Source: an uncultured virus (IMG/VR IMGVR_UViG_3300021256_003716)
Taxonomy: Duplodnaviria; Heunggongvirae; Uroviricota; Caudoviricetes
DNA: 64,000 nt
IMG/VR virus record: IMGVR_UViG_3300021256_003716
Reading direction: 5' to 3' (one strand)
A program made the position numbers and the translations under genes. Below are positions 4,339 to 53,978 of this stretch, one piece after another (within the stretch, counting starts at the first letter, position 1; each line of letters begins with the position of its first letter). Below the pieces are notes generated by a model that worked only from the letters and a program-made list of their open reading frames with translations, was not told the origin of the DNA and searched no databases.

Positions 4339-5646
4339 ATGTGGGAAATTAATGGAAAGAGAACATCTGATGAAAAAGAAGTAATGAAGGCCTTTGGTTT
4401 GAAATATCCTCCAATGGTTAAATCTCTTTTAGATACTGATTTGTATAAATTTACAATGCTGCAGGTCTATGTGCATCAGTGGAGCTCTGATCACGCAACA
4501 TGGGACTTTAAAGCTCGTAATGTTGGTGAAGGTACAGCTCATGAAAAATATACTGCGGAAGACCGTGAAGAAATTCAGAGACAGGCTAACGCATATTGCG
4601 CGCTTCGTTTTGAAGGTGAAGAACTTGATTGGCTTTCAGACTCAGTAAAGCGTCCTTGGATTCACCATAATTTCTGTGAATATCTTGAAGATTGGACGCC
4701 AAAAGCTAAACATATTACAATTGGAGATGATCCAAAAACAGGTTTGTCAATTCATACTGCAGCAACACAGCCTAAGTGTTCTCCTTATGAAATTCCTGTT
4801 CTTGAAATTTCCGCTGAAGTTTACTATCGTAATCATTATGATTATGAAGAAATGGCAAGAATTTTTAAGGAAAAAACACTTGCAAAAATTGAAGCAATTA
4901 AGCAGGGCATTTACAGACCTGGTGTTTTTTCTGAATTTGGAGCACGTCGTCGTGTAAGCTATGAGCTTCAGGATTGGCTTGTTAAAGAACTTGCTAATGC
5001 AATGAAAGATGAAAACTTTAGAAAGAATTGTACATTTGTTGGAACTTCAAATGTTCATTTGGCAAAGAAATATGATTTGACAGCGGTGGGCACTATGGCT
5101 CATGAGTTCATTATGTCTGTTGGCCAGGGACATCAGTACTATAATCCCGCTTATTCTAACTGGTATGCGCTTGACAGTTGGATTAAAGAATATGGTACAA
5201 TGAATGGTATCGCTCTTACAGATACTATTGGTACTGACGTATTCCTTCGTGATTTTAAGACCACTTTTGCAACTGTATTTAAAGGCGTTCGTCACGATTC
5301 GGGTGATCCTTACGCTTGGGGTGAAAAGATGATTGCCCACTATAAGAGCCTTGGAATTAATCCTGCAGAAAAAACTCTTATGTTCAGTGATGGCCTTAAT
5401 CTTCAGAAAGCAACAGAGCTTAATGATTATTTTAAGGATAAGATTCACGTTGCATTTGGTATTGGTACTGATTGGTCAGGTCCACAGAATATTGAGCCAC
5501 TTAATATTGTATGTAAAGTTGCAATTGTAAATGGTCTTGATGTTGCAAAACTTTCTGATGCCCCTGGAAAAAATATGTGTCGTAACCCAGCTGCTATTGA
5601 TCATCTTAAGAATGAGATTAGTTGGCGTATGGCTACAGATAAGTAA
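4339..5646 (+). CDS. pncB: Nicotinate phosphoribosyltransferase
   Basis: SLLDTDLYKFTM, SEFGARRR, GTSNV, GTMAHE, GVRHDSGD, FGIGT, KLSDAPGK. Confidence 0.95.
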   Translation: MWEINGKRTSDEKEVMKAFGLKYPPMVKSLLDTDLYKFTMLQVYVHQWSSDHATWDFKARNVGEGTAHEKYTAEDREEIQRQANAYCALRFEGEELDWLSDSVKRPWIHHNFCEYLEDWTPKAKHITIGDDPKTGLSIHTAATQPKCSPYEIPVLEISAEVYYRNHYDYEEMARIFKEKTLAKIEAIKQGIYRPGVFSEFGARRRVSYELQDWLVKELANAMKDENFRKNCTFVGTSNVHLAKKYDLTAVGTMAHEFIMSVGQGHQYYNPAYSNWYALDSWIKEYGTMNGIALTDTIGTDVFLRDFKTTFATVFKGVRHDSGDPYAWGEKMIAHYKSLGINPAEKTLMFSDGLNLQKATELNDYFKDKIHVAFGIGTDWSGPQNIEPLNIVCKVAIVNGLDVAKLSDAPGKNMCRNPAAIDHLKNEISWRMATDK

Positions 5647-5736
5647 GATAAGTTTTAAGTAACTTAAAAGGCGTCCTATTTTTTGGACGCCTTTATTTTT
5701 TCTATACTTAGCTTTTATAAAAAACATATTATAAAT

Positions 5737-6366
5737 ATGAGTTGCTATATTTATCCAGCGTATCTTTATAAGGATAACGCTACAATTGAAGACGTATCTA
5801 ATCTCCTAAAGGAACTTTTTGATATTAAACAAAAGTTTTTAGGTTATATGGTTGAAGCTTTTAAGAAAGATTGTATCTTAAAGCATGAGCTAGATGATCT
5901 TTACCCTGATGTAAAAACAGCTTTTAATAAAATATGGGAATGCCATAACCATGAGTTGATTGAAAATATTAAAAAAGATACTGCTAGCTGCATGCGTGGT
6001 TGTATTTTTGATTTTCAATGTAATGTAACAGTTTATTTTGCAGATAATAAAATTGTACTTCAAGGATTTTGCAGCTCAAATACAAAAGATTTTTTTAAGA
6101 AAAATTTTAAGTATAAAGATTATTCTTATTATGATATTTACGCAGCAGGTGGTAGAGTAAGCAAAAAGAAAGCTGCCGATTTTGCAGAAAGACAGGAATT
6201 TTATTTTGATAAGGTTTTTGAAAAATCAGGTATTCCGGCAGATGCTGGATTTACCTATGATTTCTATAGTGATGACCTTTTATATGATCTTGAAGATGAA
6301 CTTTTAGATGAGAAGTTTGGTAAAGATTGGGATTTGGAATTGCGTAAAGCAAAATATAATAAATAA
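5737..6366 (+). CDS. Hypothetical protein
   Basis: ORF track; ATG directly after the ACATATTATA box. Confidence 0.7.
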   Translation: MSCYIYPAYLYKDNATIEDVSNLLKELFDIKQKFLGYMVEAFKKDCILKHELDDLYPDVKTAFNKIWECHNHELIENIKKDTASCMRGCIFDFQCNVTVYFADNKIVLQGFCSSNTKDFFKKNFKYKDYSYYDIYAAGGRVSKKKAADFAERQEFYFDKVFEKSGIPADAGFTYDFYSDDLLYDLEDELLDEKFGKDWDLELRKAKYNK

Positions 6367-13710: not shown

Positions 13711-14465
13711 AAATAATTAGTTTTTTGTACTTAGTCAAAGTAGGTTACATATTATAAAAGTTGATTAGATTTAGCAACTAATTAAAAATAAATATTTTAA
13801 TTACCTTTACATTTTTTGTAAATGCGCTAATTTAATAATATAAGATTTTTGATGATGTTTACATCATTAAAAATAAATCCTTTAAGGTTTTAAGGAGTCT
13901 GGTGAGCTTCTTATAGAAAACTTCCCACCAAGATATTTTTATATCGTTACCCTTCGGGGTAGGTAAAATGCCTGTGTCGCTTTTTTCCTATGATTGCAAA
14001 TTAAGGATAGTGACGTAGATGTAGGTTTACTTAGATAACTATAATACATTAATTCTTGAGTATTGATTGTCCTTCCGAGGATGATTCTCGTCTGAGTAAA
14101 CGATTTTTGTTGTAATGTTTAAGAAACTTTAATGAAAGCAATCTTTCTTAAAATAATCCAACAAGTCGGTTACCAGAAACTTTTTTGTTTATCAGGGAGT
14201 CAAATCTTTGATAAGCCATCGGATAAACTAGATTGTGGATAGTCGCTTGGGTTCACTACCTTAGCCCTTGTGGAAGGAGACTAGCAGTAAACTTTTCCTG
14301 ATAAGTGGTTTCAGTTTTGGGTTTACAATTTTTAACTAATTAAAATATTAAGTTTTATACTTAATAAAAATTGATTACATATTATAAATGTAAATCAATA
14401 AAAGATACTAATTAAAGTATCAATTGAATGGTTTTTAAGACCAAATTTTTTATAGGAGACAGAGC

Positions 14466-14594
14466 ATGAATACTTCTAAGAAGATTATTAAATCAGTTAC
14501 TCTTAGTGTAAAACCCGGCTGTGGGATTGTGCTACCATGTCTTAAAGGAATTTGGCAAAAGGAAGAGAGCTTAGAAACGAATTTAATTATCTAA
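14466..14594 (+). CDS. Attenuator leader peptide A (42 aa)
   Basis: AGGAG RBS; MNTSKKIIKSVTLSVKPGCGIVLPCLKGIWQKEESLETNLII. Confidence 0.75.
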   Translation: MNTSKKIIKSVTLSVKPGCGIVLPCLKGIWQKEESLETNLII

Positions 14595-14621: not shown

Positions 14622-14651
14622 AGGCTCGGTTGAAAAAACTGAGCCTTTTTT
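14622..14651 (+). terminator. Attenuator A terminator
   Basis: AGGCTCGGTT-GAAAA-AACTGAGCCT plus T tract. The 5' arm can alternatively pair with 14567-14577. Confidence 0.8.
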
Positions 14652-15621: not shown

Positions 15622-15747
15622 ATGAGAAACGTAACTGTTAAAACAATTAAGATTACTCAGATTAAATACAACAAACCAGTTGTAATTAAACCCGTATGCC
15701 CATGGTGTCCTATTAAGGTATGGCCAGATTTGGAAGATTCTAAGTGA
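15622..15747 (+). CDS. Attenuator leader peptide B (41 aa)
   Basis: AGGAG RBS; MRNVTVKTIKITQIKYNKPVVIKPVCPWCPIKVWPDLEDSK. Confidence 0.8.
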   Translation: MRNVTVKTIKITQIKYNKPVVIKPVCPWCPIKVWPDLEDSK

Positions 15748-15783
15748 AATTTTTAATGATGCAAAATTAGAAGTTTGATTTAG

Positions 15784-15812
15784 AGTCTTTCAGGAAACTG
15801 AAAGACTTTTTT
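15784..15812 (+). terminator. Attenuator B terminator
   Basis: AGTCTTTCAG-GAAA-CTGAAAGACT plus T tract. Antiterminator 15730-15745/15778-15793. Confidence 0.85.
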
Positions 15813-15891: not shown

Positions 15892-16046
15892 TATAAAAGA
15901 AATGCTGTAAGATAAGAGTTACTTAGCTGTTGGAGCCGTGTGTCGTGGGTTCGAATCCTACTCTGCCGATTTTCGCCGGCAGATAGCTCAGTCTGGTAGA
16001 GCAACGAATAAAAAACTTTTATTTAGTTTTTGCTTTCTTTTTATAT
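15891..16046 (+). ncRNA. Y-RNA (YrlA)-like repeat, copy 4, with a circularly permuted tRNA domain
   Basis: T arm, then a closed acceptor stem TCTGCCG/CGGCAGA, then a D arm, all inside the conserved stem. Confidence 0.8.
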
Positions 16047-16132
16047 AGGTGTGTGGGTGAGTGGTCGAAACCAACAGTCTCCAAAACTGTCGTGATAAAT
16101 TCTCAACGCCTGTTCGAATCGGGCCGCACCTG
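16047..16132 (+). tRNA. tRNA-Trp(CCA), long variable region
   Basis: AGGTGTG/CGCACCT; ACAGT-CTCCAAA-ACTGT. Confidence 0.85.
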
Positions 16133-16137
16133 AAGCT

Positions 16138-16228
16138 AAGTAGTTGGACAAATTGGTAAAGTCGGCATTGTCCAAAGATGCTGTGTATGCGTACGATACA
16201 CTTATAGGTTCGAATCCTATACTACTTG
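16138..16228 (+). tRNA. tRNA-Trp(CCA), long variable arm
   Basis: AAGTAGT/ACTACTT; GCATT-GTCCAAA-GATGC; GTGTAT/ATACAC arm. Confidence 0.75.
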
Positions 16229-16236
16229 TAATATTT

Positions 16237-16953: not shown

Positions 16954-17114
16954 GCCTAAGGTTTCATCAGGTATCCAAAGATAGGCGGAAACTTGGTAGG
17001 TAGAAATACCTCTGAAAATATTGGGAGTTAACGTTACCCAATCTATGAGTAAGTTAAGTGAGTTTTCAGGTTTAGCACATTTTTGTGTTAAACTAGAAAT
17101 CTCAAAAATATTTT

Positions 17115-17186
17115 GGTCGGTTTGCCAAGTGGTAAGGCGGGTGGCTGCAACCCATCTATGCAGGTGTTCGATTCATCTACCGATCT
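17115..17186 (+). tRNA. tRNA-Cys(GCA)
   Basis: GGTCGGT/ACCGATC; loop CTGCAAC; U73. Confidence 0.9.
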
Positions 17187-17254
17187 TAATTTATGGCAGT
17201 TTAGCCAAGCGGCTCTTGCAGCGGTCTATACTTATTATTTTTACTAATTATTAT

Positions 17255-17926
17255 ATGAGTTTTAGTGAATATAACAAGAAAAGACAAAAAGACTGGTTTT
17301 GTGATGAATGTAATAAAACATTTAAAACACGTGTTGAATATCGTCAGCATCGTAAGGAAGTTAAGCATAAATCTGCTCATTCTAGGCCTTCTATAAATTG
17401 GACCTGTGAATATTGTGGATGTGAAAGGTTTTCTCCAAAGGGGTCTCAAACACTTCATATGAAATATTGCTTAGCTAATCCAAACCATATTCAGTGTATA
17501 GGACATAAAGTATTAGAAGAAACTAAAAATAAAATTTCTAAAGGTATGGTTCTAGTACATAAAGAAGGTCGTGCTAATGAATGGCAAGGTAGACGCGAGC
17601 GTAGCTATGCGGAACAAAGCTGGTATAATATTTTTACAAAGGATTTTGGTGAAGGCTCTTTTGCTAATAATTATTTTGTAAAGAAATATTGGCTTGATTT
17701 CGCTTGGCCTGAGAAAAAATTATATTTTGAAGTTGATGGCCGAACACACTTTACAGAAGAGGGACTTCTTCATGATAAAGAACGTACTGAGTTTCTTATT
17801 AGTGAGGGATGGACACTAATCGGTAGGTGTAATTGGTCAGAATACCAAAAATTATCTAAAGAAGATAAAGAGTCTTTTGTTAGGGCTATTGAAAATAAAA
17901 TTTTGGCCGTGAATCCGAATGGTTAG
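17255..17926 (+). CDS. Homing-endonuclease-like protein (zinc finger, NUMOD3-like, DUF559/Vsr-like nuclease)
   Basis: CDEC..H..H, EETKNKIS, YWLDFAW..YFEVDGRTH. Inserted inside a tRNA array. Confidence 0.8.
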   Translation: MSFSEYNKKRQKDWFCDECNKTFKTRVEYRQHRKEVKHKSAHSRPSINWTCEYCGCERFSPKGSQTLHMKYCLANPNHIQCIGHKVLEETKNKISKGMVLVHKEGRANEWQGRRERSYAEQSWYNIFTKDFGEGSFANNYFVKKYWLDFAWPEKKLYFEVDGRTHFTEEGLLHDKERTEFLISEGWTLIGRCNWSEYQKLSKEDKESFVRAIENKILAVNPNG

Positions 17927-17977: not shown

Positions 17978-18034
17978 TTATAAAATGACGGTGGTGGGTT
18001 CGAATCCCACCCCCGCCTCTTAAAGGAGACTTTT

Positions 18035-18190
18035 ATGGATTGTGGCATGGTAATAATAAATGGGCCTATGGCTGAAAGAATTTATAATGCTATGCTAGAA
18101 TCATCTGAAAAATCTAAATCTAATAAGGAAAAGCGTGAAAAGCGTTTAAGAGAGTTTGAAGAACGTATGAAGAAGAAACAGAGGGCTTAA
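18035..18190 (+). CDS. Small hypothetical protein (51 aa)
   Basis: AAGGAG RBS; below the track cut-off. Confidence 0.55.
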   Translation: MDCGMVIINGPMAERIYNAMLESSEKSKSNKEKREKRLREFEERMKKKQRA

Positions 18191-18339: not shown

Positions 18340-18428
18340 GGGCACGTTCCGATAGTAGGTTTAATCGACCAGACTTTTAATCTGGAGAGGCTTGTTCCTC
18401 ATCGTGGGTCCGAATCCCACCGTGCTCA
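18340..18428 (+). tRNA. tRNA-Lys(TTT), long variable arm
   Basis: CCAGA-CTTTTAA-TCTGG; GAGG/CCTC arm. Confidence 0.8.
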
Positions 18429-18435
18429 TTTTTAC

Positions 18436-18527
18436 GGGCGTGTTAGTATAGCCAGGTCGAATACAGCAGACTCTTAATCTGCCGGAGCATTGTTTCTCCC
18501 ACGTGAGTTCAAATCTCACCACGCTCA
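18436..18527 (+). tRNA. tRNA-Lys(CTT), long variable arm
   Basis: GCAGA-CTCTTAA-TCTGC; GGAG/CTCC arm. Confidence 0.85.
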
Positions 18528-29673: not shown

Positions 29674-30465
29674 ATGAAGATTGAAGATGTTAAGAAAGTT
29701 CGTGAAATTACAGGCGCAGGCCTTTCTGATTGTAAAACTGCTTTGGAAAAAGCAAATGGCAATGTAGATGAAGCAGTTAAGGTTCTTCAGAAAGAAGGCC
29801 TTGCAGCATCAAATGCTCGTGCACAGCGAGCTACTTCAGAAGGTCGTATTTTTACTCATGTTGAAGATAATGTTGTTACAATGTATGCAGTTAAATGTGA
29901 AACTGACTTTGTAGCTAATAGTGAGGATTTTAAGAATATTGGAAAATGCGTTGATGATGGTGAAACTCTTGGAGCTGTAATTGATAGACTTAAAATTTCT
30001 ATGCGTGAAAATATTCAGCCAGGAAATTTTGTCAAAGTTCCTTTTGACTTAAATGATATTGGCTCAACCTATATTCACTCAGATGGTAAGTCAGGTGCGG
30101 TAGTTCTTATTGAAGGAGTAGATCCTGCTAAAGTAGAAAGTGCAAAGGTTTTTGCTCATGATGTTTGTTTGCATATGGTAGCATTTAATCCACTGTATAT
30201 TTCAGTAGATGATGTTTCCCCTTCTGTTGTTAGTGAAAAACGCGAAATTTTTGCAGCTCAGATGGATAACGATCCAAAAATGACAAATAAGCCAGAAAAT
30301 GTAAAAGCTGGAATTCTTCAGGGTAAACTTAAAAAAGCTATTTCAGAACTTTGTTTGCTTAGCCAGCCATTTGTAAAGGATGATAAAAATACAACATCTT
30401 ATGTACTAGCTCGTGAGTGTGGACCTAATGCAAAAATTAGAGAAGCTAAACTTATTCAGCTTTAA
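29674..30465 (+). CDS. tsf: Translation elongation factor Ts
   Basis: VKKVREITGAGLSDCKTAL, CETDFVA, YIH, LHMVAFNP, KPENV..GK. Confidence 0.95.
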   Translation: MKIEDVKKVREITGAGLSDCKTALEKANGNVDEAVKVLQKEGLAASNARAQRATSEGRIFTHVEDNVVTMYAVKCETDFVANSEDFKNIGKCVDDGETLGAVIDRLKISMRENIQPGNFVKVPFDLNDIGSTYIHSDGKSGAVVLIEGVDPAKVESAKVFAHDVCLHMVAFNPLYISVDDVSPSVVSEKREIFAAQMDNDPKMTNKPENVKAGILQGKLKKAISELCLLSQPFVKDDKNTTSYVLARECGPNAKIREAKLIQL

Positions 30466-32621: not shown

Positions 32622-32735
32622 ATGACTAGAAACGTTAGTTTATTACAGTTTAGTTTTCTCAGCCAGATGCACTTTAGCTTGCATCAGTTCTTTATGCTCT
32701 TATGTGAAGGGGCTAATCGGAATAGTATTAAGTGA
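32622..32735 (+). CDS. Attenuator leader peptide C (37 aa)
   Basis: AGGAG RBS; MTRNVSLLQFSFLSQMHFSLHQFFMLLCEGANRNSIK. Confidence 0.85.
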   Translation: MTRNVSLLQFSFLSQMHFSLHQFFMLLCEGANRNSIK

Positions 32736-32774
32736 TTTTTAGATTTATAAGAACAGTTAATAGATTTTGATTAA

Positions 32775-32809
32775 AGCCCTTTCAGGAAAGATTCTTGAAA
32801 GGGTTTTTT
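32775..32809 (+). terminator. Attenuator C terminator
   Basis: AGCCCTTTCAGGAA-AGA-TTCTTGAAAGGGTT plus T tract. Antiterminator strand at 32705-32723. Confidence 0.85.
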
Positions 32810-37975: not shown

Positions 37976-38596
37976 AAATTTATATAGGGACGATAAAGTC
38001 CCTTATTTTGGAATAAGTCGTAACGAGTATTTCTTGTGCAAATAAGACCTCCATTGTGAAAAAAGACTGCTGTATTATATGAGTCATTTGGCCGTAATAC
38101 GGAGTTGGTTAGCCGAGCTGAAATTGATGCATCGAGTAAGCTCAGAGAAAGGATAAGACAAAGTGCATAGTCGTCTAAATGGGAGGGCGCACTCTGAAAG
38201 AGGAGTGAATATGGGTTCGAATCCCATTTATGCTTTGAAGCGCCAGAAAATAACGGACCAAGTGTTAAGTATAGGTCTGGTAGACCGTATAAAGTGCCCG
38301 CTTGGATAGCGGCCGTGACGAGAAGGCTGGGACCTATAACGCCTCATTAGCTTGTTAAACTAAAAGACGCTATACGAGTTGTATATTAGGGTGATTGCAA
38401 CACGAGAGGGTGAAGCTTAAGCCACAAAAATCCCTAATTTTTAAAAGCTGTGTGAGACGAGGAAGTTCCTCTCAATAGCCACAGTAGCTAGCTCGGCTAG
38501 TGGAGCCCCAATTTTTGGGGCGTTATTGTTAATATAAAATTATTAGAATTTTTGAGAAAATACTAATTAAATATAAATTTTAATAAGGAGACGAAA

Positions 38597-38689
38597 ATGG
38601 TAATACGTAGCAGACAAATTCAACAAATAATACGTCAAAATTGTACATATACTAGTTCGTCTTTAATTTTTAAAGTGGTTAAGAAGTAA
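38597..38689 (+). CDS. Attenuator leader peptide D (30 aa)
   Basis: AAGGAG RBS; MVIRSRQIQQIIRQNCTYTSSSLIFKVVKK, with ATA x3 and CAA x4. Confidence 0.75.
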   Translation: MVIRSRQIQQIIRQNCTYTSSSLIFKVVKK

Positions 38690-38721
38690 TCAATTAAAAA
38701 TAATAAAAATATTTTATCATA

Positions 38722-38752
38722 GGCGAACTAGAAATAGTTCGCCATTTTTTTT
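38722..38752 (+). terminator. Attenuator D terminator
   Basis: GGCGAACTA-GAAA-TAGTTCGCC-A-T8. Antiterminator strand at 38652-38662. Confidence 0.8.
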
Positions 38753-38765
38753 GGAAAATTTAATT

Positions 38766-39056
38766 ATGAAATATGATAGATATGCAAAACCTACAAAACC
38801 TTTTATGGTAATACATTATGGAACATCAACTTATAAGGTATTCAAAAGTCTAGAAAGGGCAACAGATTTTGCTATAAAATATTCCAAAAAAGTGCGAGAC
38901 TTTGTTTATTTAACAGAGCCAGTTTTGAAAAGTGATGGTTATAGGTGTGTAATTAAGGAAACCTATAAAGACGGAATATTTATTGATGCAAGTAAAGGTG
39001 CAATTTTATTACATTATATCTTTTATTATTTTGCATCAAAAAAGGGAAAGGAATAA
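38766..39056 (+). CDS. Hypothetical protein
   Basis: ORF track. Confidence 0.6.
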   Translation: MKYDRYAKPTKPFMVIHYGTSTYKVFKSLERATDFAIKYSKKVRDFVYLTEPVLKSDGYRCVIKETYKDGIFIDASKGAILLHYIFYYFASKKGKE

Positions 39057-39059
39057 TAT

Positions 39060-40235
39060 ATGTTTGATATAAATGGAAAATATGGCTCAGCAAAAGTTTA
39101 TGCGGAAACAATTGATGATGCTTGTATTTCACAGATTTATGGATTTTTAAATAATCCTATTACAGAAAATGTAAAAGTAGCAGTAATGCCAGATGCTAAT
39201 GTTGGCAAAGGCAGTACAGTTGGTTTTACACAAGAAATTAAAGATAAAGTAAATCCAAGTATGGTCAGTGTTGATATTGGATGTGGCATGTTGGTATGCA
39301 AAGTATCTAAAGAATATCATATGGATTTACCAAAGTTAGATAAAGTAATTCACCAGCAAATTCCTAGTGGCTTAAAGCACTGTGATAAGGTAAGCCTTTT
39401 TGCTAAGAATATCGACTTAAAAGGTCTTATTGCGGATGTAAATTACAATAAGGAAATTTTAGGTCTTTCATCACTCGGAGGTGGTAACCACTTCATTGAG
39501 GTAGATAAAGATCAAGAAGGTGATTACTATATTGTAATCCATTCTGGATCAAGACACTTAGGTGTTGCAGTTTGTGAGTATTGGGAAAAAGTAGCTAATA
39601 ATTTTCATAAGAAGCTAGCGGTAAAGAAATCAGAGTTGATTAATGCTAAAAATGAAAAAGCGTTAGCAGAATTGCCACCAGTAGTAACTTCTTATGGATT
39701 ATCTTATTTAATGGGAGAAGACCTAAAAGGTTATCTACATGATATGAAGATTACACAGGAGTTTGCAAGGCTTAACCGTGAAGCAATGCTTGATGTAATT
39801 CTTACTGAAATGGGAATTAAGAAGCGATATATTTTGGATAAGTTTTGTACTATCCATAATTATATCGACTTAAATAAAATGGTTTTAAGAAAGGGCGCAA
39901 TTTCTCTTGAAAAAGGTGAAAGAGCAATAATTCCAATTTCTATGGCATATGGCTCTTTAATTGTAGAAGGCAAAGGAAACCCTGATTGGAACTTTTCTGG
40001 ACCACATGGGGCAGGAAGACTTTTATCAAGGTCAGACGCTAAAAATTCTATTTCTATGGAAGACTATAAGAAATCTATGGAAGGAATTTATACAACTTGC
40101 GTAAAAGCTTCAACAGTAGATGAGTCACCAATGGCTTATAAAAATCCTGATGAGATTATTAGAGCTATTGATGGTACAGCAACAATTATAAAGACAATAC
40201 ACCCTATTTATAACTTTAAGGCCGGTAGTGATTAA
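39060..40235 (+). CDS. rtcB: RtcB RNA ligase (2',3'-cyclic phosphate / 5'-OH)
   Basis: MPD, DIGCG, GGGNHF, HSGSR, HNY, RKGA, HGAGR, DESPMAYK. Confidence 0.95.
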   Translation: MFDINGKYGSAKVYAETIDDACISQIYGFLNNPITENVKVAVMPDANVGKGSTVGFTQEIKDKVNPSMVSVDIGCGMLVCKVSKEYHMDLPKLDKVIHQQIPSGLKHCDKVSLFAKNIDLKGLIADVNYNKEILGLSSLGGGNHFIEVDKDQEGDYYIVIHSGSRHLGVAVCEYWEKVANNFHKKLAVKKSELINAKNEKALAELPPVVTSYGLSYLMGEDLKGYLHDMKITQEFARLNREAMLDVILTEMGIKKRYILDKFCTIHNYIDLNKMVLRKGAISLEKGERAIIPISMAYGSLIVEGKGNPDWNFSGPHGAGRLLSRSDAKNSISMEDYKKSMEGIYTTCVKASTVDESPMAYKNPDEIIRAIDGTATIIKTIHPIYNFKAGSD

Positions 40236-40527
40236 AATGGAAAGACCTAGAATTAAGTTTAAGAACTTTTGGTTATGGTTTAGCGATCAGGTATTACGTA
40301 AGAAAGCTTTTTATAACTTTTTTATAAGTAAAAATGCCTGGGGTGCTTTTAGTATCAACTCACATATTAGGGGTGATAATCAGCAACCAAAAGTTACATA
40401 TAATACTAAAAAATCTGCGCTTAAAGCGGCAGAAAGTATGGGTAAAAAGTATAATAAACATTTTTCAGTGTATAAATGTTTATTCTGTGATGGATATCAT
40501 ATTGGAAAAAATATGAATAATAAATAA
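40228..40527 (+). CDS. Hypothetical zinc-binding protein
   Basis: YKCLFCDGYHIG. Confidence 0.65.
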   Translation: MIKMERPRIKFKNFWLWFSDQVLRKKAFYNFFISKNAWGAFSINSHIRGDNQQPKVTYNTKKSALKAAESMGKKYNKHFSVYKCLFCDGYHIGKNMNNK

Positions 40528-40583
40528 CGTTTATAAATATAAACAAAATATAGCATAACGTTTGTTTTTACAAACGTTATCAC

Positions 40584-40657
40584 ACTCCAGTAGCTCAGCA
40601 GTCAGTAGCAGCATCCTTATAAGTTGTTGGTCGGTGGTGCAATTCCATCCTGGAGTA
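40584..40657 (+). tRNA. tRNA-Ile(TAT)
   Basis: ACTCCAG/CTGGAGT; loop CTTATAA. Confidence 0.75.
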
Positions 40658-40747
40658 TCTGAGGTAAACGGTAATTGGTACCCGCCCTGGCTTTGAACCA
40701 GTAGCGACCCAAAAGTTGCTCTGCAGGTCCGAATCCTGCCCTCAGAA
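40658..40747 (+). tRNA. tRNA-Gln(TTG), long variable arm
   Basis: TCTGAGG/CCTCAGA; loop CTTTGAA; AGCGAC/GTTGCT arm. Confidence 0.8.
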
Positions 40748-40759
40748 TATAAAACTTTT

Positions 40760-40788
40760 GAACCATAGCATAAGCTATGGTTCTTTTT
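40760..40788 (+). terminator. Intrinsic terminator ending the rtcB-tRNA unit
   Basis: GAACCATAGC-ATAA-GCTATGGTTC plus T tract. Confidence 0.8.
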
Positions 40789-40941
40789 AGCTACTGCTTA
40801 TTACTATAGTAATTTATATTACTGGTAATTAAATTGCTTTATAATCTGGAACTAAGCCAGATTTAGAAAAATCTGAAGAAAAACAGTTTAATTTTGGCAT
40901 TCTTAAAAATAGCTTACATATTATATATAATAGAGACGTTA

Positions 40942-42470: not shown

Positions 42471-42563
42471 ATGACAATGGTAAGAACAAACAGAACAATT
42501 ACTCGTCGTAGACGTATCACACGTCGTAGATATGTCATGTCTTTATGCGAACTCCAGATTTAA
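42471..42563 (+). CDS. Attenuator leader peptide E (30 aa)
   Basis: GGAG RBS; MTMVRTNRTITRRRRITRRRYVMSLCELQI. Confidence 0.8.
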   Translation: MTMVRTNRTITRRRRITRRRYVMSLCELQI

Positions 42564-42587: not shown

Positions 42588-42614
42588 AGGCAGTTCGCAA
42601 GAACTGCCTTTTTT
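42588..42614 (+). terminator. Attenuator E terminator
   Basis: AGGCAGTTC-GCAA-GAACTGCCT plus T tract. Antiterminator strand at 42546-42553. Confidence 0.85.
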
Positions 42615-42699: not shown

Positions 42700-42779
42700 C
42701 GGGGTGGTGAGCGGCTGGACGCTCGGTAGTCTTCTAAACTACAGCGAAAGCATTGCAGGTTCGACTCCTGTCACCCTGA
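42700..42779 (+). tRNA. tRNA-Arg(TCT)
   Basis: GTAGT-CTTCTAA-ACTAC. Confidence 0.8.
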
Positions 42780-50879: not shown

Positions 50880-51381
50880 TTGAAAAACATGAATATAAAG
50901 AGGAAGACTTTTCAGAAAATTATACAGTTTGGAAAGGTGAAAAAAGGAATATTCCTTTAGACGGTTGGGTATTTGACAGATTTAATAATGCCTTTTATAA
51001 AGAATGTATAAATAAAGATGAAGTTTTATGTGTATCCTATACAGAAGAGTATCAATGGCATGCAGCTTTTGGTTCTGATGCAAATCTTCTATGGAAATAT
51101 TCAAGTTCAGATGCAGCAGATGTATTCTTAGAAGCGGATAAATTTTTTAAAAAGTGGTATGGAATTGAATAATATACCGCAAATATATAATAAAGCTTAT
51201 GACTAAAAAGTATGTTATTAAGGCAGATAATTTGTACTGGCGAACATGCTATAATGGTACAAAGTCTCTAACATCAATAGAAAATGCTGATGTGTTTTCT
51301 TCATATGTTAGCGCATTATTAAAATATTTTTTTATTATTCTTAATAAAAAAGGTGAAATTATAAAATGGGAAGAGCATTAA
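50876..51381 (+). CDS. Two small hypothetical ORFs (50876-51172, 51199-51381)
   Basis: ORF track. Confidence 0.55.
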
Positions 51382-52172
51382 TTTTTCCAGGTCAGGGATC
51401 AAAACTATTCACTGACACAGATTTGGCTAGAAGCCAATTAAATATTGTTGAAAATGAATTGGAGCTTTTAGATGCTCTAAAAGATTCTAATATTAAAATA
51501 GATAGTGTTGCAGGTTTAAGTTTAGGCGCATTTACTGCAATGTATGCTTGTGGTGCATTAGATAAAACTACTATGCTTTTCTTAGTAAAAGAGCGTAGCC
51601 GAGTAATGAATCTTTATCATAATAAAAATTGTGGTATGGCCGCAGTTATTGGTTTGGATGCTGATAAAATCTTAAAAGTTTGTAATGAGTATTCTAATAC
51701 TACCGGTAATAGAGTTAGATTATCTAATCATAATGCGCCAAAGCATTTTGTAATTTCAGGTTATCTTGCTGATATTGAAAAAGCAAAAGAAAAATTAGAA
51801 AAAATAGGCGGATTTATAGTACCATTAAATGTTACAGATGCTTTTCATACTGACTTAATGGGAATGGCAAATAGAGAGTTTGCTAGGGTACTTGATAATA
51901 TTGAGTTTAATAATATTAAAATTCCTTATGTATCTAATGTGCTTGGTGAATATATTTTAATGCCAAATATTTTGAAATCGTTATTATATCGTCATATGGA
52001 ATGTCCAGTTGCTTGGGAAAAGTCTATTAGAACTATGATTAGTAATGGTATTACGGAGTTTATTGAAGTTGGGCCAGGACATGCGCTTTCTAAGTTTGTT
52101 AAGGAAATTGATCCAACTGTAAAAACTTATGTAATAAATAATATTTCTGATATAGAAAAACTAAAGGACTAA
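51366..52172 (+). CDS. fabD: Malonyl-CoA:ACP transacylase
   Basis: FPGQGS, AGLSLG, AFH, PV.W, EVGPG. Confidence 0.9.
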   Translation: MGRALIFPGQGSKLFTDTDLARSQLNIVENELELLDALKDSNIKIDSVAGLSLGAFTAMYACGALDKTTMLFLVKERSRVMNLYHNKNCGMAAVIGLDADKILKVCNEYSNTTGNRVRLSNHNAPKHFVISGYLADIEKAKEKLEKIGGFIVPLNVTDAFHTDLMGMANREFARVLDNIEFNNIKIPYVSNVLGEYILMPNILKSLLYRHMECPVAWEKSIRTMISNGITEFIEVGPGHALSKFVKEIDPTVKTYVINNISDIEKLKD

Positions 52173-52457: not shown

Positions 52458-53978
52458 GTGATGGATGAAAATTTAGAAAAGTTAACTGCATGGGACAGAA
52501 TTTTATCAGTTATTGATGAGGATGATGAGTTTAATCCTATTTATGATGGATTATCTCCGAAAAATTTATTAGATATCCCAGATTATGACAAAAAGTTAGA
52601 AAATGCTCAAAAATTAACCAAATTAGAGGATAGTATCCTAACCGGTATTGGTATTGTAGGCGGAGTTACTTGTGCTATAGGCGCAATGGACTATAGATTT
52701 CTTTGTGGGAGTCTAGGAAGTGTCTCTGGCGAAAAAATTGCCAATCTTATTGAAATTGCTGGTAGAGGTGGCTATCCTCTTATTATATTTTGCTGTTCTG
52801 GCGGCGCTCGTATGCAAGAGGGAATTTACTCTCTAATGCAAATGAGCAAAATTGTTACAACCCTTGCAAAATATAAAGAACAAATACCAATTTATATTTC
52901 TATTTTAACTAATCCTACAATGGGCGGCGTAACTGCTAGTTTTGGTATGCTAGGCGATATTATTCTAGCAGAGCCTGACGCTACAATAGGTTTTGCAGGC
53001 CCTAAAGTTATTGAGCCACTTATAAAAGAAAAAATTCCAAAAGATTTTCAGAGTGCGGAAAATCAGCTTAAAAATGGATTTATTGATGCAGTAGTACCAA
53101 GAGACCAGTTAAAAAATACATTAGATTTACTTATCAAGAGTACAAAATATCAAGTATTAGACAAAGATACATCTACAGTTGAATTTGATTTAGTAAACTA
53201 CCAAGAAGACGTTTGGCAAAAAATAAAAGGTATTAGGTCTTTCGAGAGGCTTGATAATAAGGATTACATTTCAAAATTATTTAATAACTTTATCGAATTA
53301 CATGGTGATCGAGTATCTGGTGATGACCCTACAATTTATGGTGGAATTGCATATTTTAGGGATATTCCAGTAACTGTAATCAGTATCACAAAAGGACATA
53401 ATACTGATGAAATTATTAAAAATAAATTTGGTATGGTTTCCCCTGAAGGGTATAGAAAAGCTATTAGATTATTAAAATTGCATCCTTCAAGGCCAGTTAT
53501 TATTTTTGTAAATACTCCGGGTGCATATCCAGGTATACTTGCTGAAGAAAAAGGCCAAGGAACAGCTATTGCGAATTGTTTACTTGCTATGGCTGATGTA
53601 ACCGCCCCAACATTATCATTTATTACAGGTGAGGGCGGCTCAGGTGGCGCTTTAGCGTTAGCTACTAGCAATTGTGTCTGGATGCTAGAAAATTCTGTTT
53701 ATTCAGTTATATCTCCAGAAGGATTTGCTTCAATTTTATTTAAGGATGTAAATAGAGCACCTGAAGCTGCAAAACTTATGAGAATGACATCTAAAGACTT
53801 ATTAGAAGCTGAAGTAATTGATGGTATAATTCCTGAGCATGGCGGCGCAACAATGGAGCATTTAGATGAAATTGTTAAAGATATGGCAACTGTAATTGGC
53901 AATTTTATTAGAAAGTCTCATGACAAAAGTGGTAAGACTATCGTAGATGCAAAACATCAAAAGTTTAGTAAGTTTTAA
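52458..53978 (+). CDS. accDA: Acetyl-CoA carboxylase carboxyltransferase beta-alpha fusion
   Basis: SGGARMQEG, PTMGGV, GFAGP (AccD) followed by ELHGDR, PEGYRKA, GEGGSGGALA, YSVISPEG (AccA). Confidence 0.92.
   Translation: MMDENLEKLTAWDRILSVIDEDDEFNPIYDGLSPKNLLDIPDYDKKLENAQKLTKLEDSILTGIGIVGGVTCAIGAMDYRFLCGSLGSVSGEKIANLIEIAGRGGYPLIIFCCSGGARMQEGIYSLMQMSKIVTTLAKYKEQIPIYISILTNPTMGGVTASFGMLGDIILAEPDATIGFAGPKVIEPLIKEKIPKDFQSAENQLKNGFIDAVVPRDQLKNTLDLLIKSTKYQVLDKDTSTVEFDLVNYQEDVWQKIKGIRSFERLDNKDYISKLFNNFIELHGDRVSGDDPTIYGGIAYFRDIPVTVISITKGHNTDEIIKNKFGMVSPEGYRKAIRLLKLHPSRPVIIFVNTPGAYPGILAEEKGQGTAIANCLLAMADVTAPTLSFITGEGGSGGALALATSNCVWMLENSVYSVISPEGFASILFKDVNRAPEAAKLMRMTSKDLLEAEVIDGIIPEHGGATMEHLDEIVKDMATVIGNFIRKSHDKSGKTIVDAKHQKFSKF

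Follow-up and report, generated by a model that had tools for sequence, protein, structure and literature searches.

A codon-biased leader and a terminator precede rtcB and two tRNA genes

The stretch of DNA analysed here, hereafter the window, comprises 64,000 nucleotides (nt) of an uncultured virus of the Caudoviricetes (IMG/VR record IMGVR_UViG_3300021256_003716), and the subject of this report is one of its plus-strand gene units, designated unit D, in which a short leader and an intrinsic terminator precede a gene of the RtcB RNA ligase family and two tRNA genes. The leader open reading frame (ORF; 38597-38689) consists of 30 codons and a stop codon, would yield the peptide MVIRSRQIQQIIRQNCTYTSSSLIFKVVKK, and is preceded, 6 nt upstream of its ATG, by the Shine-Dalgarno (SD) sequence AAGGAG (38585-38590). 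Codons 3-14 (38603-38638), which hold three ATA and four CAA triplets, are referred to below as the regulatory block. The leader is followed by an intrinsic terminator retrieved in two scans, GGCGAACTA-GAAA-TAGTTCGCC (38722-38743), with a 9-bp stem (5 GC), a GAAA loop and a hairpin energy of -13.8 kcal/mol, continued by one A and a run of eight T at 38745-38752. Three genes come next: ORF1 (38766-39056, 96 amino acids, no family match), rtcB (39060-40235, 391 amino acids, assigned by Pfam and PHROG to the RNA 3′-phosphate/5′-OH ligase family) and ORF3 (40237-40527, 96 amino acids, a phage hypothetical protein with weak PHROG matches). An 11-bp hairpin devoid of a T tail, ATAACGTTTGT-TTTT-ACAAACGTTAT (40555-40580), stands 3 nt upstream of tRNA-Ile(UAU) (40584-40657, called by ARAGORN and Rfam), which reads AUA; it is followed by tRNA-Gln(UUG) (40658-40747, 90 nt, called by ARAGORN only), which reads CAA, and by a closing terminator (40760-40788) made of a 10-bp stem (5 GC) with loop ATAA at 40760-40783 and five T.

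The spacing within the unit is tight. The gap is 13 nt between the T tract and ORF1, 3 nt between ORF1 and rtcB and 1 nt between rtcB and ORF3. Upstream of rtcB the leader is therefore the sole intergenic space, and the two tRNA genes abut without spacer. Two independent scans returned no plus-strand terminator between 38752 and 40760. The leader terminator ranks among the best within 30-45 kb of the window, a region with 19 terminator-like sites compared to 7.9 +/- 2.9 in shuffled sequence, and another terminator-like hairpin (38505-38521) sits upstream of the leader. An earlier interpretation of this DNA made from the letters alone (the sequence-only reading) had described the leader, its terminators and the order ORF, rtcB, ORF, tRNA-Ile(TAT), tRNA-Gln(TTG), terminator; all of these statements were correct on re-check, and its placement of rtcB inside the unit is supported in silico by the gaps of 13, 3 and 1 nt.

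Of three sequencing runs that contain at least half of the words sampled from 38400-40900, one may be the source of the window; the other two, a gut and a bovine gut metagenome by their labels, carry near-identical contigs. The leader is retained by strain variants found in two DNA runs. Contigs of two RNA-library runs hold pieces of rtcB, ORF3 and tRNA-Ile, some of them from relatives; they leave 38484-39071 uncovered and are uninformative on transcription and termination. The only exact match to the leader terminator in IMG/VR was found in an unrelated high-GC contig.

The leader is enriched in the codons read by the two downstream tRNAs

ATA occupies codons 3, 11 and 12 of the leader and CAA codons 7, 9, 10 and 14, precisely the count that the sequence-only reading had reported. 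The two codons together account for 3.4% of the 10,073 codons of 31 long ORFs of the window, and their occurrence at 7 of 29 positions of the leader is accordingly improbable by chance (P=4.1e-5). When only codons 3-14 are considered, a span picked post hoc, the proportion rises to 7/12 (P=3.5e-8), and a count based on the wobble set of the two anticodons again gives 7/29 (P=0.0019). SD-preceded ATG ORFs of 12-70 codons are themselves scarce, with only 11 on the plus strand of the 64 kb.

The correspondence extends to the choice between synonymous codons. Leader D, with tRNA-Gln(UUG) downstream, uses CAA four times and CAG never, whereas leader C, which belongs to a second unit of the window and precedes two tRNA-Gln(CUG) genes, uses CAG three times and CAA never (Fisher P=0.029); overall, leader D carries four of the five CAA codons present across the five leaders of the window. 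Likewise, ATA makes up 3/5 of the isoleucine codons of leader D vs 0/15 in the other four leaders (Fisher P ~0.009), the isoleucine tRNA of unit B being tRNA-Ile(GAU). In the phage ORFs sampled, ATA represents 29% of isoleucine codons and CAA 54% of glutamine codons. A match of the leader to both downstream tRNAs at the level of the codon, as had been proposed, is thus supported in silico by the contrast of unit D with units B and C.

Competing helices and the predicted effect of ribosome position

Three segments of the leader region can pair in alternative ways. Segment 1 (38587-38603) spans the SD, the start codon and codons 2-3; segment 2 (CTAGTTCGTCT, 38652-38662) is the 5′ strand of the antiterminator; and segment 3 (AGGCGAACTAG, 38721-38731) overlaps the 5′ arm of the terminator. 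The antiterminator helix, 2:3, comprises 11 bp, ten of them Watson-Crick and one G-U, with a duplex energy of -16.5 kcal/mol vs -6.5 +/- 1.6 in dinucleotide shuffles of the upstream region, none of 500 being as stable; inclusive of its 57-nt loop the helix amounts to -13.1 kcal/mol. The 11-bp antiterminator of the sequence-only reading is therefore real by this measure. Segment 2 is also the partner of segment 1 in the minimum free energy (MFE) fold of 38560-38770, which contains the terminator as well and has an energy of -39.2 kcal/mol (z=-3.9), a value that none of 200 shuffles attained. The 1:2 duplex (-14.9 kcal/mol vs -7.5 +/- 2.1) was equalled in stability by one of 500 shuffles. Pairing of the SD/start region with segment 2, together with the 2:3 helix and the terminator, reproduces the classic 1:2 / 2:3 / 3:4 layout. 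In the strain variant of run X2, the 164 nt of 38580-38743 differ by one substitution, located outside the helices, and the 1787 nt of 38714-40500, over ORF1, rtcB and ORF3, by 37.

The influence of the ribosome was modelled on a transcript ending before the 3′ arm of the terminator, with a mask of 28 nt for the ribosome. The predicted probability of the 2:3 helix was 94-98% with the A site at codons 2-9 and 97-98% at codons 13-15; in between, it dropped to 83% at codon 10 and to about 50% at codons 11-12. It fell to 0-2% at codons 17-26, where the ribosome lies on segment 2, and was 10-17% once the ribosome had arrived at the final codons or the stop codon, positions at which the 1:2 helix reached 74-80%. 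With the ribosome absent, the 2:3 and 1:2 helices were predicted at 49% and 44%, respectively. The sequence-only reading had raised the caveat that the antiterminator strand lies about 27 nt upstream of the stop codon. The distance measured here is 24 nt, and the worry attached to it appears to be answered by the modelled 1:2 helix: because segment 1 would capture the strand, a terminating ribosome need not cover it.

Two other measures were set aside. Equilibrium folding of the full terminator with a masked footprint proved unsuitable as a test of switching, the terminator dominating nearly everywhere in all nine units considered below, and a coarse measure of whether an arm was paired counted unrelated local pairs and was replaced by the specific probability of the 2:3 helix.

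Leaders of sister units match their own tRNA clusters

Inspection of the sequence upstream of every terminator that precedes tRNAs yielded four further units on the plus strand of the window. Unit A has its ORF at 14466-14594 and its terminator at 14622-14646, followed by tRNAs for Gly, Ser, Gly and Leu. Unit B (ORF 15622-15747, with KPVVIKPVCPWCPIKVWP in its product; terminator 15782-15809) precedes tRNAs for Pro, Trp, Trp, Pro, Ile(GAU), Val, Cys, Cys and four Lys. Unit C (ORF 32622-32735, with SLLQFSFLSQMHFSLHQFFMLL; terminator 32773-32807) precedes tRNAs for Phe, Leu, Phe, His, Leu, His, Leu, Gln(CUG), Met, Gln(CUG) and Ser, and unit E (ORF 42471-42563, with RTNRTITRRRRITRRR; terminator 42588-42609) precedes those for four Arg and one Thr. 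Units A-E together precede 34 of the 41 tRNA genes of the window. Leader codons readable by the downstream anticodons were then compared with background codon usage. Matches of the leaders to their own clusters numbered 21/42 in B (P=6e-5), 23/36 in C (P=3e-9), 9/34 in E (P=5e-6) and 6/41 in A (P=0.14), and the true pairing of leaders and clusters ranks 1 of 120 permutations of the five units. Leader A fits the tRNA set of unit B better than its own (17/41, P=0.004). In view of this fit, of the location of A directly upstream of B, and of B being the only unit that lacks the upstream motif described below, leader A may feed unit B.

The same design recurs in relatives with other codons. L081, a 20-kb piece whose RtcB is 77% identical, bears four units devoted to other amino-acid sets, each matching its own cluster (P=1e-6, 0.023, 9e-6 and 2.5e-4), and the pairing again ranks first, 1 of 24. 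In L003 and L006 (55-56%), a Tyr/Met/Ser-rich leader precedes tRNAs for Tyr, Tyr, Met, Met, Ser and Ser. L084 (89%) has an E-type leader with identical antiterminator and terminator, the Arg runs of which use different synonymous codons. The leader-terminator-tRNA layout thus recurs nine times, five in the window and four in L081, and the fact that leaders vary in step with the tRNAs that follow them is the strongest argument for the arrangement being functional. Unit D itself does not share in this argument, its leader occurring only in the window and in the identical contig L083. Antiterminator complementarity exceeded that of shuffles in five of the nine units; besides unit D, these are B, C, E and iv, with shuffle fractions of 0.002, 0, 0.004 and 0.006, respectively.

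The motif ACTAATTA, a candidate promoter-associated element, lies at 38562-38569 on the plus strand, upstream of leader D. Its nine matches in the window are a chance number overall and the motif is not enriched genome-wide; yet four of the eight plus-strand matches fall 35-66 nt before the starts of leaders A, C, D and E (P=6e-8; positions 14407, 32556, 38562 and 42434). It is also found upstream of three of the four L081 leaders (L081 positions 3975, 3999, 9203 and 16527) and of the L084 leader (829), such that across three phages it stands 35-75 nt 5′ of most leader start codons. ACTAATTA may mark a promoter of the attenuated units or a site at which a regulator acts on them. Its assignment as a sigma-70 -10 or -35 element was rejected, as the spacing to TTGACA-like and TATAAT-like hexamers varies between sites, and because of this inconsistency it is kept here as a plain motif.

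Unit B holds additional features. A DUF559 endonuclease and zinc-finger ORF (17021-17926) lies between the two tRNA-Cys copies and looks like a mobile endonuclease inserted in the tRNA cluster; an orphan tRNA 3′ half is located nearby, at about 17990-18018. A 51-codon, SD-preceded ORF rich in Lys, Glu and Arg codons (18035-18190) stands 70 nt before the four Lys tRNAs, and no canonical terminator follows it.

RtcB retains the catalytic residues and changes leader between lineages

RtcB seals RNA breaks bearing 2′,3′-cyclic-phosphate and 5′-OH ends. The product of the unit D gene matches the family over its full length (Pfam PF01139, 1.2e-56; PHROG 1075, 1.3e-119), with scores below the cut-offs of the NCBIfam RtcB equivalog models (109 bits vs 407 and 85 bits vs 272). 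It aligns to P. horikoshii RtcB, and D72, C75, N143, H144, H161, H266, N267 and H316, which are invariant in a 10-sequence alignment, correspond in this order to Asp95, Cys98, Asn202, His203, His234, His329, Asn330 and His404 of the archaeal enzyme. According to the portions available of its structural description (PMC9745838), Asp95, Cys98, His203, His234, His329, Asn202, Asn330 and the nucleophile His404 are the metal, GTP and nucleophile residues of that enzyme.

RtcB relatives were drawn from 157/159 IMG/VR stretches, of which 80 were kept, and from 508/579 metagenome stretches, of which 80 were kept; gene order was inspected in 12 of these 160 rtcB loci, and some contigs occur in both collections. 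The protein from the window has the motif VMPDANVGKG, with Asn47 in place of the usual His of PDxH, as the sequence-only reading had pointed out. Among the 148 of the 160 loci that include the region, 142 have His, four Ser and two Asn. The two Asn cases are an identical contig and the 89% relative L084, and Asn appears to be maintained in this small lineage since it is common to the window and L084. The PDxH histidine is mentioned neither in the literature searched nor in the accessible parts of two RtcB structure papers.

The setting of rtcB differs between lineages. In L084 the gene lies inside the Arg/Thr-leader unit, after three Arg tRNAs and before those for Arg, Arg and Thr, and in L081, L085 and L086 (76-77%) it lies inside a Thr/Leu/Asn/Ser/Pro/Trp-leader unit. 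In L002, L003, L006, L012, L014 and L021 it is found outside any attenuated tRNA unit, following in L003 and L006 the terminator that closes the Tyr/Met/Ser unit; in L096 the contig ends upstream. From these arrangements, co-expression of rtcB with attenuator-gated tRNAs is a predicted feature that recurs in the closest lineages, and the tie to ATA and CAA is peculiar to this phage. The special link between rtcB and these two codons that had been suggested is thus not supported.

Two neighbours of rtcB in relatives are recorded here. In L084, a 75-residue stand-alone YebC/TACO1 N-domain gene (1487-1714; Pfam 2.8e-21) directly precedes it. In L002, a gene for a homologue of EF-Ts directly follows it (5234-6010; 2.1e-38); the window also encodes such a homologue (29674-30465; Pfam 5.4e-36), a phage translation factor near rtcB and the tRNAs.

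tRNAs, orphan ORFs and phage context

The UAU anticodon is generally regarded as rare in bacteria. ARAGORN called two tRNA-Ile(UAU) genes in the window, and the copy in unit D scores 49.6 bits with the Rfam tRNA model and has the anticodon loop CUUAUAA. tRNA-Gln(UUG) has a predicted cloverleaf fold (z=-3.3) in which the variable arm measures 6 bp; the Rfam tRNA model did not match it at the cut-off, the best score being 27.5 bits for tRNA-Sec (cut-off 47), and its acceptor identity is therefore putative. In the run X2 strain variant, approximately 14 nt are missing within 40700-40721, a stretch read here as the extra arm. Long extra arms normally mark Leu, Ser and Tyr tRNAs. Long tRNAs (80-93 nt) with Trp, Lys, Gln, Arg and Cys anticodons occur in the window at 16046-16133, 16137-16229, 18340-18428, 18436-18527, 40658-40747 and 42700-42779, and in relatives at 546-634 and 642-729 of L084 and 695-784 of L006; those that were folded show a long extra arm.

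The hairpin that precedes tRNA-Ile may be a processing site or a stabiliser of the mRNA 3′ end. Three exact copies of ATAACGTTT within 40524-40583, which may be a processing site or a rearrangement junction, allow alternative hairpins directly upstream of this tRNA, and sequence related to the 40555-40580 hairpin/ATAACGTTT region is found directly upstream of rtcB in L084 (~1726-1790). ATAACGTTT was rejected as a genome-wide motif, with 26 matches vs 31 expected at one mismatch or fewer, and is local to 40524-40580. As to the two small proteins of the unit, ORF1 matched no Pfam, NCBIfam or PHROG entry, and its sole homologue among 162 loci is in the identical contig L083; its Atlas model has a predicted template modelling score (pTM) of 0.68 and names no family. 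ORF3 has weak PHROG matches only (0.0018), the Atlas clusters closest to it consist of viral hypothetical proteins (score 0.96), and no named family was returned by Pfam, NCBIfam, PHROGs or Atlas.

The window is AT-rich throughout (GC content of 28-42% per 2-kb window) and has the appearance of a segment from a large phage. The closest RtcB genes are on IMG/VR contigs of 220-420 kb, and similarity to cultured phages is restricted to part of rtcB (65-70% DNA identity with Bacillus and Clostridioides phages). All 41 tRNA genes called by ARAGORN are on the plus strand, and 37 regions lie at or above the Rfam tRNA cut-off. The intron mode of ARAGORN added no tRNA to those of the window, intron-bearing or other, and the Rfam scan of the window detected no intron family. 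Other encoded proteins include, in addition to the EF-Ts homologue, a nicotinate phosphoribosyltransferase, an acetyl-CoA carboxylase carboxyltransferase and numerous ORFs without family. Three auxiliary metabolic genes were noted: one for nicotinate phosphoribosyltransferase (4339-5646), one for a protein with an acyl-transferase (FabD-like) domain (51366-52172) and one for a fused acetyl-CoA carboxylase carboxyltransferase (52458-53978).

A tRNA-like gene at 38163-38236 was given a four-base anticodon (aaag) by ARAGORN and scores 27.6 bits with the Rfam tRNA model (cut-off 29 bits). T-loop-like motifs gave 17 plus-strand matches outside every called tRNA, about 12 of which have flanking stems when read by eye; examples are at 561, 2600, 2671, 15949, 17998, 18728, 25919, 33113, 33540, 36455, 37272 and 41772. 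These matches are frequent in ORF-free spacers, and an ORF-poor, GC-richer stretch extends over ~35.1-38.5 kb. Such matches could stem from tRNA fragments, from tRNA-like RNAs or from tRNAs that carry a large insertion.

Proposed mechanism and its alternatives

The in silico observations cover the parts of unit D, the order in which they occur, the codon statistics, the helices in competition and the units of analogous build. From them we infer translation of the leader, codon-dependent read-through, co-transcription over 2.2 kb and a natural cause of slow decoding, and consider it likely that unit D acts as a transcription attenuator of the ribosome-mediated, leader-peptide type, which closes a feedback loop on the decoding of AUA and CAA. 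Transcription would begin a short distance 5′ of the leader, and a ribosome would load at AAGGAG. With Ile-tRNA for AUA and Gln-tRNA for CAA in plentiful supply, the ribosome would cross codons 3-14 and cover segment 2; after its passage segment 1 would take segment 2, segment 3 would be left free to form the 3:4 terminator, and RNA polymerase would stop at 38745-38752. Were AUA or CAA decoded slowly, the ribosome would wait within codons 3-14 with segment 1 masked or held apart, segment 2 would pair with the newly made segment 3, no terminator would form, and read-through would yield a transcript of ORF1, rtcB, ORF3, tRNA-Ile(UAU) and tRNA-Gln(UUG). As both tRNAs read exactly the test codons, the device would hold the decoding of AUA and CAA steady by negative feedback, with RtcB made alongside the two tRNAs from the same transcript.

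Several observations weigh against this attenuator model. The modelled antiterminator reaches only about 50% at the adjacent ATA codons 11-12. With the complete terminator, the equilibrium fold favours termination at every ribosome position (0.76-1.00 in unit D), and the antiterminator helix, at -13.1 kcal/mol, has no advantage in stability over the terminator hairpin, at -13.8 kcal/mol, the two being about equal; for these two reasons the switch must be kinetic, like that of classical attenuators. Were the host a member of the Bacillota, coupling of transcription and translation would be loose. Leader D, ORF1 and ORF3 have no homologue save the identical contig L083, on account of which the helices of unit D are without covariation support, and four of the nine units have no significant antiterminator (shuffle fractions of 0.19, 0.13, 0.14 and 0.42 in A, i, ii and iii). 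Judging from the sequence, internal promoters may be present in ORF1 or rtcB. RtcB itself carries Asn in place of the His present in 142 of 148 relatives, and since the rtcB of relatives is under other leaders or none, its link to ATA and CAA would be recent and perhaps incidental.

What the ligase does is the part of the interpretation most open to another explanation. It is possible, if on balance unlikely, that the attenuator works as proposed and that RtcB serves some purpose other than the repair of nuclease-cut host tRNAs, be it maturing phage tRNAs or tRNA-like RNAs, sealing other RNAs such as rRNA, being carried along as a passenger of rearrangement, or exerting an activity altered by the His-to-Asn change. 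The presence of rtcB under three leaders in three lineages, and elsewhere beside the EF-Ts or YebC N-domain gene, would fit such a role, as would the 17 T-loop-like matches outside tRNAs, the several long-arm tRNAs and the Asn at the conserved His position. Against it, none of the published metal, GTP or nucleophile residues is lost, Asn is maintained in L084, neither an intron-bearing tRNA (ARAGORN) nor an Rfam intron family was found, and no endonuclease partner was identified in unit D.

The sequence-only reading had combined the attenuator with co-induction of repair and replacement by tRNA damage. Its attenuator, antiterminator, codon match and inclusion of rtcB in the unit are all supported in silico; co-induction by damage as such is not supported, nor is the tie of rtcB to particular codons. 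The switch would answer a slow-down at ATA or CAA of whatever origin, be it scarcity, cleavage or lack of charging of the tRNAs. Slow decoding could result from the codon demand of the phage itself, from loss of host tRNAs during infection or from nuclease cleavage. The last of these triggers is attractive because RtcB is present. That the unit is a damage-triggered countermeasure, in which removal of the tRNAs for AUA and CAA by a host defence nuclease or depletion mechanism would stall ribosomes on the leader and bring forth, from one transcript, a ligase to reseal the cut tRNAs and two replacement tRNAs, one being the unusual long-arm tRNA-Gln, is a doubtful proposition which we put forward tentatively; if true, the five codon-matched attenuators would amount to a per-codon surveillance panel of host decoding capacity.

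It is improbable that the attenuator, though real, senses the general status of translation, the ATA and CAA content being a by-product of AT-rich sequence. The model does predict the antiterminator upon any stall at codons 2-15, not just at ATA or CAA, and leader switches of the PA5471.1-armZ type are described as answering stalled or impaired ribosomes generally in the available part of the relevant account (PMC12057347). However, the combined frequency of ATA and CAA (7/29 vs 3.4%, P=4e-5), the use of ATA in leader D alone, the opposition of CAG in leader C to CAA in leader D, and the first rank of the true pairing among 120 permutations in the window and among 24 in L081 all argue for codon specificity.

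Slightly less probable still is that the leader and its terminator form an independent short-ORF unit, or terminate upstream transcription, with the remaining genes expressed without regulation from internal promoters or by constitutive leak. Promoter-like matches to 9 of 12 consensus positions do occur in or near ORF1 (38851-38880 and 39030-39057); they are weak, and such matches are at chance level overall (59 vs 56 expected). In L084, TTGACA-17-TAATTT can be read by eye directly before rtcB. Set against these, the T tract ends a mere 13 nt before ORF1, the hairpin at 38505-38521 and ACTAATTA already precede the leader, both competing helices are beyond at least 499 of 500 shuffles, and the layout recurs nine times with matching codons. 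Finally, a tRNA- or protein-operated riboswitch (T-box-like or TRAP-like) with an untranslated ORF is very improbable even though T-boxes are textbook sensors of uncharged tRNA by way of a terminator and an antiterminator, for the 64 kb contain no Rfam T-box or other cis-regulatory match at the gathering score and no T-box at E<=1, the sole cis-regulatory match at E<=1 is a chance-level L20-leader (22.3 bits vs a cut-off of 58.7), and the region measures only ~150 nt, is AT-rich and has a strong SD, an in-frame ORF and a match to reading-frame triplets.

Relation to known systems and significance

The principle of multivalent leader-peptide attenuation is established for enterobacterial amino-acid operons, as set out in the accessible part of PMC1183508. 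Unit D resembles the thrL, ilvL, trpL, hisL and pheL attenuators in its regulatory-codon-rich leader, predicted to be translated as theirs is, in its competing 1:2 / 2:3 / 3:4 helices and in a terminator placed before the first gene. It differs from them in that its products are tRNA genes and an RNA ligase rather than biosynthetic enzymes, in that these products read the test codons, with discrimination between synonyms (ATA/ATT, CAA/CAG), in the use of the SD/start region as segment 1, and in being phage-borne with five sequence-unrelated copies. The full-text searches made here returned no description of tRNA genes under leader-peptide attenuation, the nearest case among their results being that of PA5471.1-armZ in Pseudomonas aeruginosa. 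As far as the available text of that work goes, the PA5471.1 leader peptide and terminators gate the RtcB-like armZ/PA5470, and impaired or stalled ribosomes lead to read-through (PMC12057347). Control of an RtcB-family gene by a leader peptide and downstream terminators is thus shared with unit D; from the same portion of the source, the Pseudomonas system, unlike unit D, is chromosomal, includes no tRNA genes and answers ribosome-targeting drugs rather than named codons, and its product ArmZ is an anti-repressor of MexZ. T-box riboswitches, as known from textbooks, likewise couple tRNA status to the choice between terminator and antiterminator; they differ from unit D in binding uncharged tRNA directly and being untranslated, and have no Rfam match here.

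RtcR-controlled rtcBA and the phage answers to anticodon nucleases, which include the T4 Pnk/Rnl1 repair pathway and phage tRNAs standing in for cut or depleted host tRNAs, all supply repair or replacement upon tRNA damage. Induction of unit D would differ from that of rtcBA in following the speed of the ribosome at two codons instead of a sigma-54 activator, and, unlike in the T4 and phage tRNA answers, the ligase and the replacement tRNAs would share one transcript. What is new here is the tRNA-gene targets and the specificity at the level of isoacceptors, the mechanism itself being known.

A textbook device of amino-acid biosynthesis thus appears to gauge decoding speed at single synonymous codons. 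If this is true, large phages would have a mechanism to dose their tRNA sets to need rather than constitutively, and phage tRNAs and RtcB would be tied to a defined signal, namely ribosome stalling at ATA and CAA. Such leaders would represent compact natural sensors of codon-specific translation speed, and would bear on why phages carry tRNAs, whether for codon supply or for escape from defences that target tRNAs.

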